Origin: Nitrospirota bacterium
GTDB taxonomy: Bacteria > Nitrospirota > Nitrospiria > 2-01-FULL-66-17
NCBI GenBank assembly: GCA_049325335.1
Contig: JBMOMC010000043.1
Coordinates: forward strand, 144,362 to 181,751
DNA length: 37,390 nucleotides
Direction of reading: 5' to 3'
The stretch's first letter is position 1, and each line of letters begins with the position of its first letter. Position numbers and translations under genes: made by a program. Shown here one piece after another: positions 24,924-30,982 of this stretch. The notes below the pieces were generated by a model. It was not told where the DNA came from. It worked only from the letters and a program-made list of their open reading frames with translations, and searched no databases.

Positions 24924-25196
24924 TTATCGGGTCGTCAATGCGGCTTGAAGCGCCCGGAGTTGCGCGTCCCGATCATCCAGCCCGGAGAGCACCGCGGCCA
25001 ATTGGTGTTTCAGATACGGGGTGACGGCAACCGCGTCCATCAGCGCGGCGCAGAACGCGTCGGGAGCCGCGGACGCCTGACCCGCGAGGCGGGTCACCGC
25101 CTCGTCGCTGACGGGCCAATAATACGGCCCGGCGTGAAACAGCACCGGATAGATCCCGGCCGCGCGGCGCTCGATACGAAGTTGTTGAGTGGGCAT
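24924..25196 (-). CDS. Hypothetical protein (90 aa)
   Basis: AAGGAG SD, co-oriented between comF and the GT2 gene, and protein-like composition. Confidence 0.7.
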   Translation of the reverse strand: MPTQQLRIERRAAGIYPVLFHAGPYYWPVSDEAVTRLAGQASAAPDAFCAALMDAVAVTPYLKHQLAAVLSGLDDRDAQLRALQAALTTR

Positions 25197-26130: not shown

Positions 26131-26376
26131 ATGGATCATACGGATATTCGTATCGACGTTGAATTAAACCTGCGCGGCGTGCATTGTCCCTATAACTACG
26201 TCCGCACCAAACTCAAGCTGGAAGAAATGCGCGCCGGGGAGATCCTGGCCGTGACTGTTGACGCCGGTGAACCGGCCCGCAACGTTCCTCGGAGCGTGGC
26301 CAACGACGGTCACCGGGTGCTCGAACAAATTCCCCTGGATTCCGCCCTGCGTATTGTGATCGAAAAGGTCGGGTAG
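26131..26376 (+). CDS. TusA/SirA-family sulfur carrier
   Basis: LNLRGVHCPYNYVRTKLKLEEM, GEILAVTVD, NVPRS. Has a CPxN variant of the CPxP motif. Confidence 0.88.
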   Translation: MDHTDIRIDVELNLRGVHCPYNYVRTKLKLEEMRAGEILAVTVDAGEPARNVPRSVANDGHRVLEQIPLDSALRIVIEKVG

Positions 26377-26474
26377 TTTCCGGCCTTCCCGCGTGGTCCC
26401 TCGGCGATTGACACGCCGAGCCCATCCGCTACACTCAATGCCGCTCTGACTCATTCCTGCCGCCACGTGCCTTG

Positions 26475-27797
26475 ATGCGCCTAACCCTAGCCCATAAGAT
26501 GTTGCTGGGGAACTTGACGCTGGTCTTGTTGATTCTGGCCGTCGGTCTCTCCGCACTCGGCAGTCTGAAGTCGCTGTATGCCTTGGGCAGTAACCTGGTC
26601 CAGGTTGCCCTGCCGAATATCGAATTGGCGGCGGATTTAGAAGAAGCGCTCCTGATTCGCGATCAATACGAGCAACGCAATATTCAGGCGCCGGACCGCG
26701 GGCTTCAGGTGTTGGCCGACGAACAGTTGGAGCGATTTAATAGAACGCTGCAACGGTTTGTCGCGTTGCCGCCGGAGGCATCCACGGCCATGGAGCGCGT
26801 ATCCGTGGCGTTGGCCGAGTATGACCACGCGGTGAGCCGAACGCGCGCCGCGGTCGAACACGACGAGACGGACGGGGTTCCTCTGGTGGCCGATGAACTG
26901 CTGACCGGGCCGCGTGAGCGATTGCAGAGGGCGATTCACGGTTTGGGGCAAGCGCTGAAGATTTCCCAACGGGAGGCGTTGCAGCAGTCGCAACGTCTGA
27001 TCGGGAACGCGTTGCTGATGACCGTGGTCACCTGCGCCGCGGGGTTGGTGTTCGGCGTGACGTTTTCCCTGCTGTTCTCGCGGTCGCTGTCTCGATCTCT
27101 CGAACAATTCAAGGCCGCCACGCAGTTGATCGGCAAAGGCCGGTACGACGAAACCCTGCCGCTGCGATCCACCGATGAAATCGGCGAGTTGGCGGAGTCG
27201 TTTCGGTGGATGAGTTATCGCCTCAAGGAACTCGAGGAAATGAACCTTGACGCGAATCCGCTCACCCGCCTCCCCGGGAATTTAGCGATCGAAAAAGCGC
27301 TGCTCGAGCGCCTGCAGCGACGACGGCCGTTTGCGTTTTGCCACGTGGACCTGGACAACTTCAAGGCGTTCGGCGACTACTACGGATACGCGCGGGGCAG
27401 CGAAGTCCTCAAGATGGTCGGGCAGGCGTTGGTGCGCCTCAGCGGGGGCGAGATTCGCGACATGTTCGTGGGCCATATCGGAGGCGATGATTTCGTGCTG
27501 ATCTGCCCGCCGGAACGCGTGGCGGGGCTCTGCCGGCAGATGATCAAGGAGTTCGACGCGGCCATTCCGGCGTTCTACGATCAGGAAGACCGCGAACGCG
27601 GGCACATCGTCTCCCGCGATCGCAATGAAGTGGTGCAGGAATTTCCCATCATGACCGTGTCCATTGCCGTGGTGACCAATGAACGCCGGGACATCACGTC
27701 GCCGTTACAGGTCGCGGAGATCGCGGCGCAACTGAAAAAATACGCGAAGAGCTTTCCCAAGAGCATTTTTGTTATTGATCAGCGGCGGGAACTGTAG
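26475..27797 (+). CDS. Membrane sensor-HAMP-GGDEF dinucleotide cyclase with atypical base-selecting residues
   Basis: TM, periplasmic helical bundle, TM, HAMP (DEIGELAESF), DANPLTRLPGN, DLDNFKAFGDYYGYARGSE, GHIGGDDF. Confidence 0.9.
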   Translation: MRLTLAHKMLLGNLTLVLLILAVGLSALGSLKSLYALGSNLVQVALPNIELAADLEEALLIRDQYEQRNIQAPDRGLQVLADEQLERFNRTLQRFVALPPEASTAMERVSVALAEYDHAVSRTRAAVEHDETDGVPLVADELLTGPRERLQRAIHGLGQALKISQREALQQSQRLIGNALLMTVVTCAAGLVFGVTFSLLFSRSLSRSLEQFKAATQLIGKGRYDETLPLRSTDEIGELAESFRWMSYRLKELEEMNLDANPLTRLPGNLAIEKALLERLQRRRPFAFCHVDLDNFKAFGDYYGYARGSEVLKMVGQALVRLSGGEIRDMFVGHIGGDDFVLICPPERVAGLCRQMIKEFDAAIPAFYDQEDRERGHIVSRDRNEVVQEFPIMTVSIAVVTNERRDITSPLQVAEIAAQLKKYAKSFPKSIFVIDQRREL

Positions 27798-28536
27798 TCG
27801 CGCCGAGCGGCTCCTCCCGCCCGTCGCGCGGTTCCTCCGATGCGGTCCGGTCGCGCCCGCCGATCAGCAGCGTCATCTCCCCCTTGCGCGGCGCCCGTTC
27901 CAACTGGGCGATGAGGTCGGAGAGCGTTCCCCGCAGGAATTCTTCGTGGAGTTTGGTGAGTTCACGGGCCAGGACCGCGGGTCGGTTCCCCCAGGCCGTA
28001 TGGATCGCGTGCAGGGTTTTGAGGATACGCTGCGGGGATTCAAAGAGCACAATCGTCTCGCGCAGGTCTTGGAGCGCCGCGAGGCGTTTGGCGAGCCGGC
28101 CCGACGGTTTCGGCAAAAAGCCCTCGAAATGGAAGCGATCCGTGGGCAGTCCGGCCGCGGACAGCGCCCCAAGGATGGCCGACGGTCCTGGGATCGGCAC
28201 CACGGGCACGCCTGCGTCGATACAGCGATTGATCAAAAAATAGCCGGGGTCTGAAATCGTGGGAGTGCCGGCGTCGCACACCAGCGCAATGGACGCGCCT
28301 TCTTGGAGCCGAGCGAGCAGCACCGGAGCTTTGCTCTCTTTATTGAAGTCGTGGTAACTGGTCAACGGCGTGTGTACGTCATAACGGGCGAGCAGGTGGT
28401 GGGTGTGGCGCGTATCCTCCGCCGCGATGGTAGCCACCTCCTTGAGGACCCGCAACGCCCGCAGCGTCATGTCTTCGAGATTCCCGATCGGCGTCCCCAC
28501 CACATAGAGCACGCCTGGTTGCGTCGGCCGGTCCAT
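27772..28536 (-). CDS. rsmI: 16S rRNA (cytidine1402-2'-O)-methyltransferase
   Basis: LYVVGTPIGNLEDMTLRA, AAEDTR, DAGTPTISDPG, FEGFLP, FESPQR, ARELTKLHEE, KGEMTL. Confidence 0.96.
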   Translation of the reverse strand: MDRPTQPGVLYVVGTPIGNLEDMTLRALRVLKEVATIAAEDTRHTHHLLARYDVHTPLTSYHDFNKESKAPVLLARLQEGASIALVCDAGTPTISDPGYFLINRCIDAGVPVVPIPGPSAILGALSAAGLPTDRFHFEGFLPKPSGRLAKRLAALQDLRETIVLFESPQRILKTLHAIHTAWGNRPAVLARELTKLHEEFLRGTLSDLIAQLERAPRKGEMTLLIGGRDRTASEEPRDGREEPLGATTVPAADQ

Positions 28537-28740
28537 CACGCGCAACCGTAGCAAAGTTCGGTACGGCTCAGCAAGCGATCACCCCCCCCATAAAGTTTTT
28601 CCCGTCCTCGACCGATACAGCGTTGAACAGGCATTGGAGCGCGTTCCGCGCGCGCTGCGGGATAGTCCACGCCCCCGGCGCTGGTGGGACGAACGGATGC
28701 GGCAGTTCCCCAGGACCGGGGTGTCATCGAGGAGGCACGG

Positions 28741-30630
28741 ATGAAGGGCGTTCACGCATGGATGCGAACCGGCTGTGTATTGGGACTGGTGGTGTGGCTC
28801 GCGGCATGCGGCGGTGGCGGCTCGTCAGGCTCCTCCGGCGGAACCCAACTGGCTGGGCAGGAAAAATCGCAATCGAGTGGCGCCGACGGGAAGGGGTCGG
28901 GCCACGACCAGTCCGGTAAAGATCCGGCCCCACCCGACCACTCGGACGACAACGGCAGCAACCACGAAGAGGGCGGCAACACCGGACCTGGAGAGCAACC
29001 GGGGGGGCACAACGGCAACGGCAACACCCCCCCGGACGGCAGCGGATCATCTGGAGACGACGAGACTGACGATGATGATGAATCCGAACCTGGTCCTCCG
29101 GCGCCAGGCACCGGGAGCGGCAACCCCGACGACGACCACGGCAATTCCGATCCCGGCGATCCGGGGGATCACGATGGCGGTGATCCGGGTGAGGATGGCG
29201 GCGGGACCGACGATCCCGAGGATCCGGAAGGTGAAGAGCCGCCGGTAGAGGATGACCGGAGCGAAAACGCGGGTGATGGGCTCGATTTCCCGATCGTGAC
29301 CCAGCTCGCGCAGCAGGTGTATCCCCGGTTGATCCACCACGTCACCGCACACCGCTACTTCGCGGTGTGGAACGACCAGCGCGACGACGGCGCCTGGCGC
29401 GTGGTCGGCCGCGAAGTCAATATTTCGGACGGCGTGCACGGCGCGACCAAGGTGATCGCCGAGCGCGAGGCGGCTCCCTACGCCGCGCCGGGAACGGCGC
29501 ACGACCCGGCGGGTGAGCGTTCCTTGGTGGTGTGGGGGACGGCCGCGGGGGATGTCCTGGCGCAAGCGATTGATGTTGCCGGGGACGCGGTGGGCGACGC
29601 CGTGACCGTGGCCAATGGCGCGTCGGACGAGGTTGATCCGGTGGTCGGGTTTGATCCGACCACCGGGCAGTACGTGGTGGCGTGGATCGAAACGTCGTCG
29701 CGCGTGGTGGTGTATACGCGGGCGCTCAGCCGCGACGGGGCGGTTCTCGGCGACCCGACCCCGCTGACCGAGGCGGCCTCGGGCAAATTGGACCTACGGA
29801 TGGCGGCTGATCCGGAATCCGGCCGATTCTTGGTCGTGTGGCGGGACTATCGCGGCCAGGACCTCTACAGCATTTTCGGTCGGATGGTTGACGCGGACGG
29901 CGCCCCCACATCCGACGAACTGGTCATCGGGGATGCCCTTGGCGCGCAGATCCTGCCCCAGGCGGCGTTCGACCCCGCGCATCGAACCTTTCTCGTAACG
30001 TGGTCGGACACGCGGCGTAGCGGTACGTACGAGTTATATGGACAGATCGTGACCTCGCCGGACGGACTGTTGCTGGGGGACAACGTATGGATCGACGCCC
30101 ATGGAGGGGCGGATCACGCGTTGGAAGCCGATCCATCACACGAAGCCTTTGTCATCGCGTACCCCCATCCGACGCATCGCGTGTATGCCCGGTATCTCGG
30201 CCCGGATGGTCGCGCGGAGGGGGACGAATTCCCGGTCTCCACGGTCGCCGGAGTCCCGAGCATGCCGCATGCGGCGGTTGACCCCAACGGACTCGGATTC
30301 CTCACGGCGTGGGCGGACGGCCGTGAGGGTCCGCTGCACGTGTTCGGACGCTGGATCACCATGGACGGAACCGGAGCCGAGCCCGGCGAACCGCCGCCGT
30401 CCGAGTGCCAGGAGTTCCGCGACACCGCGGGTGCCTGTCTGTCGTGTGAACAACATGCGGGGCCGTTGGTTGACCAGGCGTGTCCCGTGACCGGCGCCTA
30501 TGAAACCCACGGCGCGTATGTCGCATGCGTCGCTGCAGCGGTGAATGCGCTGCGCGATGACGACGTGATCGGCGGCGCGTGCAAGCTCAATTTGATCGCG
30601 CCGCGCGCGCGGTCGTCGGTCGGACGATGA
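28741..30630 (+). CDS. Lipoprotein with acidic low-complexity linker, beta-propeller-like repeats and Cys-rich C-tail
   Basis: GGAGG SD; lipobox LAAC; long G/D/E/P-rich segment; repeated (Y/F)LVVWxD blades; tail CP...HGAYVACVA...ARSSVG. Confidence 0.8.
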   Translation: MKGVHAWMRTGCVLGLVVWLAACGGGGSSGSSGGTQLAGQEKSQSSGADGKGSGHDQSGKDPAPPDHSDDNGSNHEEGGNTGPGEQPGGHNGNGNTPPDGSGSSGDDETDDDDESEPGPPAPGTGSGNPDDDHGNSDPGDPGDHDGGDPGEDGGGTDDPEDPEGEEPPVEDDRSENAGDGLDFPIVTQLAQQVYPRLIHHVTAHRYFAVWNDQRDDGAWRVVGREVNISDGVHGATKVIAEREAAPYAAPGTAHDPAGERSLVVWGTAAGDVLAQAIDVAGDAVGDAVTVANGASDEVDPVVGFDPTTGQYVVAWIETSSRVVVYTRALSRDGAVLGDPTPLTEAASGKLDLRMAADPESGRFLVVWRDYRGQDLYSIFGRMVDADGAPTSDELVIGDALGAQILPQAAFDPAHRTFLVTWSDTRRSGTYELYGQIVTSPDGLLLGDNVWIDAHGGADHALEADPSHEAFVIAYPHPTHRVYARYLGPDGRAEGDEFPVSTVAGVPSMPHAAVDPNGLGFLTAWADGREGPLHVFGRWITMDGTGAEPGEPPPSECQEFRDTAGACLSCEQHAGPLVDQACPVTGAYETHGAYVACVAAAVNALRDDDVIGGACKLNLIAPRARSSVGR

Positions 30631-30646
30631 GACACGAGGTGACGCG

Positions 30647-30982
30647 ATGACGGCCTGTTTGTGCGGGCTGTTGGTGGCTACGCTGTCGGCGGCCTCCGCC
30701 GACCTGGAGACCACACGCCAATTTACCGCGAATGGACAAAAAGAGTTGAACCCATTAGCGCGTCCTTTTGTGGAGGGCCGTGGGGCGAGGGGCGAGGCGT
30801 GGTTGGGCAGCATCACGGTGGCGACGTACGTCACACTTGGCCAAGCCCCGGAGCCCTGGCGCACGCTCGCCTTGTTCGGCGGCTGGGCCGTCCATACGAC
30901 CATGGCGATTCGGAATGTTCGCATCGGTACCGCGCACGAGGTGCCCCGGATCGTGTTCCCGGTATTGGCGGTTCGCTGGTAG
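30647..30982 (+). CDS. Hypothetical hydrophobic protein
   Basis: GAGGTG SD; follows the lipoprotein; ADLETT...ELNPLARPFV plus hydrophobic stretches. Confidence 0.55.
   Translation: MTACLCGLLVATLSAASADLETTRQFTANGQKELNPLARPFVEGRGARGEAWLGSITVATYVTLGQAPEPWRTLALFGGWAVHTTMAIRNVRIGTAHEVPRIVFPVLAVRW

Follow-up and report, generated by a model that had tools for sequence, protein, structure and literature searches.

Two residues of the GGDEF pocket, N335 and D344 in PleD, are credited with the GTP specificity of diguanylate cyclases (PMC7186502). In the Hypr enzymes, exemplified by GacA (GSU1658/Gmet_1914; structure 6D9M), Ser348 lies on the Watson-Crick edge of the base and Asn339 on its sugar edge; a central Asp is obligatory, a Glu serves as the cross-dimer base and the cross-dimer residue is one other than Arg, a feature that favours cGAMP (PMC6456294). 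Bd0367 is another natural Ser-bearing Hypr enzyme that makes cGAMP (PMC9140294). The Ser alone is insufficient, as canonical GSU3350 remained a pure diguanylate cyclase after its D-to-S exchange (PMC6456294).

A second cGAMP synthase of Geobacter sulfurreducens, GSU1937, was published in 2022 and combines transmembrane (TM) segments and a HAMP domain with a Ser-bearing GGDDF cyclase. Deletion of its gene lowered a cGAMP reporter by approximately 25% on fumarate and by 70% on Fe(III) citrate, and did so even in the absence of GacA. One of four GacA fusions carrying the GSU1937 GGDDF domain made cGAMP together with c-di-GMP, the latter at an output comparable to that of GacA, and its GADDF mutant was dead; neither wild-type GSU1937 nor the three other fusions showed activity in E. 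coli. That study did not establish which product of GSU1937 predominates in vivo (PMC8835794).

A predicted membrane-bound cyclase of the GSU1937 family

The window analysed here, a 37,390-nucleotide stretch of DNA from a Nitrospirota bacterium, encodes a putative membrane-bound GGDDF cyclase in the following setting.

26131..26376, + strand: TusA-family gene, upstream neighbour (Pfam)
26408..26435, + strand: sigma-70-like promoter match, 10 of 12 positions, about 40 nt upstream of the ATG (consensus match only)
26472..27797, + strand: cyclase open reading frame, 441 aa from a TTG (ORF list)
26481..26585, + strand: hydrophobic segment 1, residues 4-38, predicted TM1 (Kyte-Doolittle)
26586..26993, + strand: predicted periplasmic four-helix sensor, 4HB_MCP_1-like (Pfam in homologues, AF2 model)
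26994..27080, + strand: hydrophobic segment 2, residues 175-203, predicted TM2 (Kyte-Doolittle)
27072..27224, + strand: HAMP, residues 201-251, then a coiled-coil helix into the cyclase (Pfam, AF2)
27249..27794, + strand: GGDDF-type cyclase domain, residues 260-441 (Pfam GGDEF 263-361, AF2 model)
27579..27647, + strand: family-specific helix and beta-hairpin, residues ~370-392, with invariant R384 (alignment, AF2 model)
27772..28554, - strand: tetrapyrrole-methylase-family gene, convergent and downstream (Pfam)

Translation of the cyclase more probably begins at an in-frame ATG (26475), since its orthologues start at the same Met, and the promoter-like site 5' of the gene suggests that it may have a transcript of its own. 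The protein matches the layout of the GSU1937 family in having two TM segments, a predicted periplasmic sensor and HAMP ahead of a single GGDDF domain, and contains no other output domain. Pfam 4HB_MCP_1 was matched in the sensor stretch of homologues and not in the cyclase protein itself; an AF2 model computed from a 94-sequence alignment (mean pLDDT 84, pTM 0.46) placed four long helices between the TM segments, followed by an alpha/beta cyclase domain. A dedicated operon partner was sought and none was found, the tusA-type and methylase-type neighbours being kept in nine of 32 compared loci with no sign of partnership, and other clades having different neighbours. The downstream methylase-family gene (27772..28554) is presumably RsmI-like.

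Several other genes of the window had no Pfam match. These comprise a 648-aa protein (28684-30630, + strand) that starts like a lipoprotein and has a low-complexity acidic linker, repeats and a Cys-containing tail, and two short ORFs of 90 and 111 aa (24924-25196, - strand, and 30647-30982, + strand). A cytochrome c7-like multiheme protein (PF14522; 32549-33262, - strand) is encoded 5 kb from the cyclase.

A homologue search from locus L150 led to a named G. sulfurreducens protein, P0241, whose cluster includes P0270 (AAR35313.1, G. sulfurreducens PCA). We take P0270 to be GSU1937, as the peptides of both inner deletion primers (PMC8835794) lie near its two ends; a search for the primers in the metagenome contigs returned no matches. 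The cyclase protein (P0001) was 42% identical to the cluster representative P0241 over 261 aa (BLASTP, E 7e-69), and the profiles of the two families (94 and 34 sequences) aligned over 435 columns, sensor included, with a probability of 100%. On this sequence evidence the cyclase protein is a full-length homologue of GSU1937 within the Ser/GGDDF family. The two proteins are of similar length (436 versus 441 aa) and share the two TM segments, HAMP, GGDDF motif and Ser selectivity residue, the His before the motif, the Asn at the cross-dimer site and the lack of a second catalytic domain, and both genomes also carry a GacA-type enzyme. They differ in that GSU1937 keeps the sugar-edge Asn whereas the host protein has Gly, and in that GSU1937 belongs to another phylum and subclade than the Nitrospirota protein. 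The original prediction had presented the locus as a candidate for an undescribed system, a claim that does not survive the comparison: the membrane-bound HAMP Ser/GGDDF type had already been tested as GSU1937 (PMC8835794). The kind of enzyme is thus already described, and what is new relative to GSU1937 is the Gly at the N335 position.

PleD and the HAMP-GGDEF enzymes DgcN/YfiN share the GGDEF fold, the metal Asp, the catalytic Lys and, in part, the TM-HAMP-cyclase layout with the host protein. The latter, however, keeps none of the canonical residues N335, D344 and R366, nor the Arg at the cross-dimer site, the Glu that serves as general base or the I-site; the NCBIfam DgcN/YfiN match was weak (44 bits versus a cut-off of 325). 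A Cas10/Cmr2-type palm was considered and rejected, as Palm2 gave no match at E 0.001 and two homologues reached 17 bits against a cut-off of 27.

The nucleotide pocket and its likely products

The register of the pocket was verified against solved GGDEF sequences and the GacA chain of 6D9M, which has Asn and Ser at the two positions concerned. The pocket residues are as follows.

27279..27281, + strand: Asn270, cross-dimer position, where diguanylate cyclases have Arg, GacA has Tyr304 and GSU1937 has Asn
27348..27365, + strand: from D293, which binds the metal, to the catalytic Lys K298, both unchanged in all 106 Gly/Ser domains
27372..27374, + strand: Gly301, codon GGC, replacing the sugar-edge Asn (PleD N335, GacA N339)
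27399..27401, + strand: Ser310, codon AGC, the Hypr selectivity residue (PleD D344, GacA S348)
27474..27494, + strand: H335 and GGDDF (337-341), with central Asp339; Asp340 takes the position of the general-base Glu, a trait shared with GSU1937

Both substitutions therefore stand at the codons where they had been placed, and the metal Asp, the Lys and the GGDDF motif are intact, D302 and G337-G338-D339-D340-F341 being present. A canonical RxxD I-site is absent from the protein, as had also been claimed, the corresponding positions reading I328 and M331. In a redundant set of 106 Gly/Ser domains, D293, K298, D302, G337, G338, D340, K422 and K426 were invariant and D339 was conserved in 105, the exception being D339N. 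A sequencing artefact or chance was excluded, as 76 of the 120 best homologues are Gly/Ser and all four Gly codons are used among the genome loci.

Ser at the D344 position, which the original prediction had rightly read as a Hypr signature (GacA S348, PMC6456294), is accompanied by the central Asp and a non-Arg cross-dimer residue, three features that liken the protein to GacA and Bd0367. The cross-dimer residue is Asn270, or Leu271 if the register shifts by one residue. Asn occupies this position family-wide, and since the Asp-type paralogues too have Asn rather than Arg, it is not diagnostic of Hypr enzymes here. GacA and Bd0367 differ from the cyclase protein in having GGDEF with a Glu base, Asn339 and an Arg ahead of the motif, in possessing an I-site, and in taking their input through cytoplasmic domains. 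The protein stands outside the GacA subfamily as defined by Glu base, I-site and common descent, having GGDDF and no RxxD; the GacA-type enzyme of the host genome shares 22% domain identity with it, its Ser having arisen separately. The sugar-edge Asn, which is not named among the signatures of the Hypr family but is kept by the tested members checked (GacA Asn339, GSU1937), as the original prediction had stated, is Gly301 in the cyclase protein. The canonical Asn335/Asp344 guanine pair and the cross-dimer Arg are all replaced.

The Asp-type GGDDF proteins belong to the same divergent GGDEF subfamily (PLT-LPG start, GH[IV]GGDDF, R384). Those among the best 150 of 832 cluster representatives differ in keeping Asn/Asp (88 of 88) and in mostly being devoid of HAMP (84 of 88, by a crude BLAST check). 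One such protein is a Rec-like paralogue of the host genome with 36% domain identity to the cyclase protein (contig C45, G000:C45:101138-101668, - strand, equivalent to L093:4136-5218); with its canonical Asn/Asp pair it offers a natural in-genome control for Asp-type GGDDF activity.

We lean, with modest confidence, towards the cyclase being a promiscuous enzyme of the GSU1937 family that joins ATP with GTP, signals via 3',3'-cGAMP and makes less c-di-GMP than its Asn-bearing relatives. Homology to GSU1937, the Ser and central Asp, the non-Arg cross-dimer residue, the invariant catalytic residues and co-occurrence with a GacA-type motif support this reading. It is weakened by the Asn that GSU1937, the tested relative, retains and by the modest evidence for that protein's activity, by the insufficiency of Ser alone in GSU3350, and by the lack of an A20 riboswitch or an RxxQ/N HD domain in the host. 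A product other than c-di-GMP, as the original prediction had proposed, is judged likely.

By the precedent of HAMP-GGDEF proteins, a periplasmic cue would alter the four-helix sensor; through TM2, HAMP and the coiled coil, the paired cyclase domains of a homodimer, with one NTP bound to each, would then be re-oriented. As in GacA, Bd0367 and GSU1937, Ser310 would take either purine on its Watson-Crick edge, the short central Asp339 would set the distance from Mg to base, and Asp340 would be the base acting across the dimer. The sugar-edge Asn reads N2 and N3 of guanine, of which adenine shares N3. We propose that Asp was replaced by Ser first, whereupon the Asn may have become dispensable; its loss would drop the contact to guanine N2, weaken GTP relative to ATP, and so cut c-di-GMP and raise c-di-AMP as a side product. 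Loss of this second guanine contact is predicted to tilt output towards adenine-containing signals. The HAMP-GGDDF enzyme would form a second, membrane-sensing input beside the GAF-GGDEF GacA-type enzyme of the host, as in Geobacter.

The size of such a tilt was gauged with a rapid-equilibrium what-if model that takes the published constants of another enzyme, GacA, and assumes ATP binding to be untouched. At an ATP:GTP ratio of 3:1, the shares of c-di-AMP/cGAMP/c-di-GMP were 13/52/34% with no loss of GTP affinity, 38/51/11% with a 3-fold loss, 53/42/5% with a 5-fold loss and 70/28/2% with a 10-fold loss; over losses of 2-3-fold, cGAMP made up approximately 51-55%, c-di-GMP 11-18% and c-di-AMP 28-38%. 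In the model, cGAMP thus remains a major product over the likely range whilst c-di-GMP falls, and dominance of c-di-AMP needs a guanine-specific loss of at least ~1 kcal/mol.

The upper end of this range bears on an alternative that we regard as unlikely, namely that with the Asn, the Asp and both Arg contacts to guanine gone and ATP in excess, c-di-AMP is the main product and the enzyme a diadenylate cyclase of GGDEF fold. c-di-AMP is already among the products of GacA, at a similar kcat (PMC6456294), and the model passes to a c-di-AMP majority from the 5-fold loss onwards. The contact of the Asn with N3, being common to both purines, may however mean that its removal weakens ATP binding too.

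That the enzyme is plainly or mainly a diguanylate cyclase appears improbable. His335, the residue before the motif where PleD has R366, Arg384 and the hairpin would have to pick guanine in another way; His335 occurs family-wide and in GSU1937, and both it and Arg384 are invariant in the Asp-type paralogues as well. The c-di-GMP output of the GSU1937 chimera (PMC8835794) and the behaviour of the GSU3350 D-to-S enzyme (PMC6456294) fit this possibility, yet every known guanine-specific contact is replaced, and the natural Ser enzymes tested, GacA, Bd0367 and GSU1937, make cGAMP (PMC6456294, PMC9140294, PMC8835794). With two side chains shortened or removed, an enlarged pocket might also yield a pyrimidine-containing or other non-standard dinucleotide, and Hypr enzymes do accept purine analogues (PMC6456294). 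We hold this to be very improbable, given that in the Goldilocks model pyrimidines are too short to span the metal and the base-reading residue (PMC6456294), a reach that shortened side chains would worsen.

Distribution and descent of the residue pair

Among the best 120 of 2588 homologues, 76 carried Gly/Ser at the N335/D344 positions, 30 Asn/Ser, 13 Ser/Ser and one Asn/Asn; the nearest named relatives were Nitrospirota, with 93% over the cyclase. Both substitutions are conserved in orthologues, a lack of which had been named as a ground for rejecting the original prediction. When representatives of 50% clusters were searched with HMMER, unfiltered, 832 proteins were retrieved at E 1e-30, and the best 150 of these were analysed. 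Asn/Asp was the commonest pair (88), followed by Asn/Asn (27), Asn/Ser (21), Gly/Ser (5), Ser/Ser (4), Ala/Ser (3), and Val/Ser and Thr/Ser (1 each). Of the 35 Ser enzymes, 14 have therefore lost the Asn, which all 88 Asp and all 27 Asn enzymes keep, a contrast whose Fisher p overstates the case because the representatives are related. By a crude BLAST check of the same 150, a HAMP-like stretch was present in 33 of 35 Ser, 24 of 27 Asn and 4 of 88 Asp proteins. Of 251 genomes of the class, 19 contained the exact Gly-or-Ala/Ser motif, in all cases with Gly and in four families only, with none for the reversed control.

The phylogeny was inferred with a careful LG+G4 tree of 58 domains, hand-picked from 334 domains and the 150 representatives, from which the long-branch rows L034 and L038 were excluded. 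The cyclase protein and GSU1937 shared a 39-row Ser/Asn clade (92/92, unstarred) that appeared separate from the Asp-type GGDDF paralogues, and a quick mixture-model tree of 106 rows agreed on the joint clade (SH-aLRT 94). The two proteins fell into different starred subclades; as the joining clade is unstarred, one-to-one orthology may not hold. The Gly/Ser pair required five changes on the tree, at least four of them forced, and a single origin was rejected (monophyly, p 1e-64). Joining the 39-row clade with the GacA-type domain of the host was likewise rejected (AU test, p 8.7e-07, with one GacA-type row and long branches), so that Ser arose at least twice and, as had been surmised, independently of GacA. 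A column scan for a residue compensating for the lost Asn returned clade-confounded associations only.

Enzymes with Ser and GGDDF that lack the Asn thus arose repeatedly, both among Nitrospirota and within the phylum sample that surrounds the genome G001, and no report of this Asn-less variant was found in searches of an open-access library. Confinement of the loss to Ser enzymes and its independent recurrence, mostly to small residues, would fit c-di-AMP as the main product, but relaxed constraint fits repeated loss equally well, as the position is variously taken by Gly, Ser, Ala, Thr or Val. A broader form of the c-di-AMP proposal, in which all Ser/GGDDF enzymes with Gly, Ala, Ser, Thr or Val instead of the Asn have turned fully from guanine and are membrane-sensing enzymes of GGDEF fold making mainly c-di-AMP, residue 335 being a second evolvable dial of specificity, is in our estimate unlikely as well; if true, it would amount to a third way of making c-di-AMP, one that does not use the DAC fold. 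Repeated loss of a second guanine contact on a Ser background only is in itself a testable natural experiment, and if residue 335 tunes the proportions of c-di-GMP, of cGAMP and of c-di-AMP, the annotation of thousands of GGDEF-like genes would change.

Loss of the Asn may instead have abolished productive NTP binding, leaving a dead or nearly dead protein that acts as a nucleotide- or protein-binding module, for instance by modulating the GacA-type enzyme. The Asn is invariant in the Asp-type enzymes (88 of 88 among the best 150 of 832), and no cyclase activity was seen for the GGDDF/EAL protein PA3258, nor for wild-type GSU1937 in E. coli (PMC8835794). We nonetheless think this unlikely: the columns of the metal ligand, the Lys, GGDD and the phosphate-binding Lys hardly vary among the 106 Gly/Ser domains, the protein offers no alternative output domain, and GSU1937 both acted on the reporter independently of GacA and yielded an active isolated domain (PMC8835794).

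Two further pocket variants were observed in the family. A well-supported Ala/Ser clade with Trp two residues before the Ser (loci L122, L124, L125, L127, L129, L130, L132, L133, L139, L143, L144, L146, L148 and L151) is a second independent loss of the Asn. An Asn/Asn variant, with Asn at the Asp/Ser selectivity position and mostly with HAMP, nests among the Ser enzymes in the LG+G4 tree and had no description in the literature examined; its cross-dimer column, which is Asn in other enzymes, is Gly in 24 of 27 proteins among the best 150 of 832 (loci L021, L022, L024-L026, L028, L029, L041, L123, L126, L128, L131, L134-L137, L140, L142, L145, L147 and L149).

Cyclases, riboswitches and phosphodiesterases of the host

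The host genome contains 29 GGDEF matches, most of them with canonical Asn/Asp pockets, which makes a diguanylate role for the Ser enzyme less compelling. Two of the 29 carry Ser: the HAMP-GGDDF cyclase and a GAF-GGDEF protein on contig C1 (G000:C1:489199-490584, - strand, equivalent to L092:4200-5585), whose best PDB match is GacA 6D9M (E 2.4e-49). The host thus pairs a GacA-type GAF-GGDEF enzyme with HAMP-GGDDF-Ser, as G. sulfurreducens pairs GacA with GSU1937. The GAF-GGDEF protein and its orthologue-like loci L152-L181 have Asn/Ser, GGDEF and a Phe or Tyr at the cross-dimer site. The GacA-type Ser motif was found in 32 of 41 related genomes of the class (control 0), and all 30 GacA-type loci examined had Ser with GGDEF. 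From these motifs, the GAF-GGDEF protein is a candidate cGAMP synthase of GacA type, widespread in part of the Nitrospirota class.

The HAMP-GGDDF-Ser enzyme was present in 18 of the 41 genomes (17 Gly, one Ser), all 18 of which carry the GacA-type motif, and had no match in the nine genomes devoid of that motif, these kin not being independent. Such a nested distribution points to a cGAMP network and argues against c-di-AMP as the main product; restriction to genomes with the GacA-type motif would also suit a dead protein. The presence of a DAC-domain gene in the host genome, in which no ydaO riboswitch was matched, likewise speaks against the c-di-AMP proposal.

GEMM-I riboswitches occurred in 33 of the 41 genomes, and 21 of them, in 15 genomes, had A at the position read as 20, a register that we in part assume. 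All 15 of these genomes have the GacA motif and only six the HAMP-GGDDF-Ser enzyme; A20 therefore tracks the GacA motif, and its co-occurrence was rejected as support for the HAMP-GGDDF-Ser enzyme. A20 in GEMM-I is the mark of an aptamer that binds cGAMP or is bispecific (PMC6140456). As both A20 riboswitches and enzymes of GacA type are common in part of the Nitrospirota class, the Hypr cGAMP pathway would extend beyond the deltaproteobacterial groups studied.

The original prediction had also pointed to GEMM-Ib riboswitches and HD-GYP phosphodiesterases as places to seek corroboration, and neither gave positive support. The host genome has three GEMM-I riboswitches, all G20, which sets the host protein's setting apart from that of GSU1937 and would suit a diguanylate cyclase, and none of its eight HD_5 matches has Rxx(Q/N), the HD-GYP signature of the Hypr pathway (10.1101/600031). 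No cGAMP reader or eraser was thus found in the host genome, although a genome of the same genus (G008) has an A20 GEMM-I.

Some features of individual GEMM-I loci were also recorded. The host riboswitch at L003:1501-1614 (G000:C2:418219-418332) has a long insertion in its second stem and G at the stacking position, canonically A, as in the Rfam c-di-GMP-I-GGC consensus. Directly downstream of another (L001), L094:2424-4964 (G000:C43) encodes an 847-aa protein that starts like a lipoprotein and matched nothing in Pfam. Near-identical aptamer starts were found to differ at position 20, both within one genus and within one genome: A is present at G008:C17:71505-71601 and G039:C18:37375-37466, and G at G000:C43:286243-286335 (L001) and G039:C62:89129-89220 (L064), suggesting that ligand switches may have been recent.
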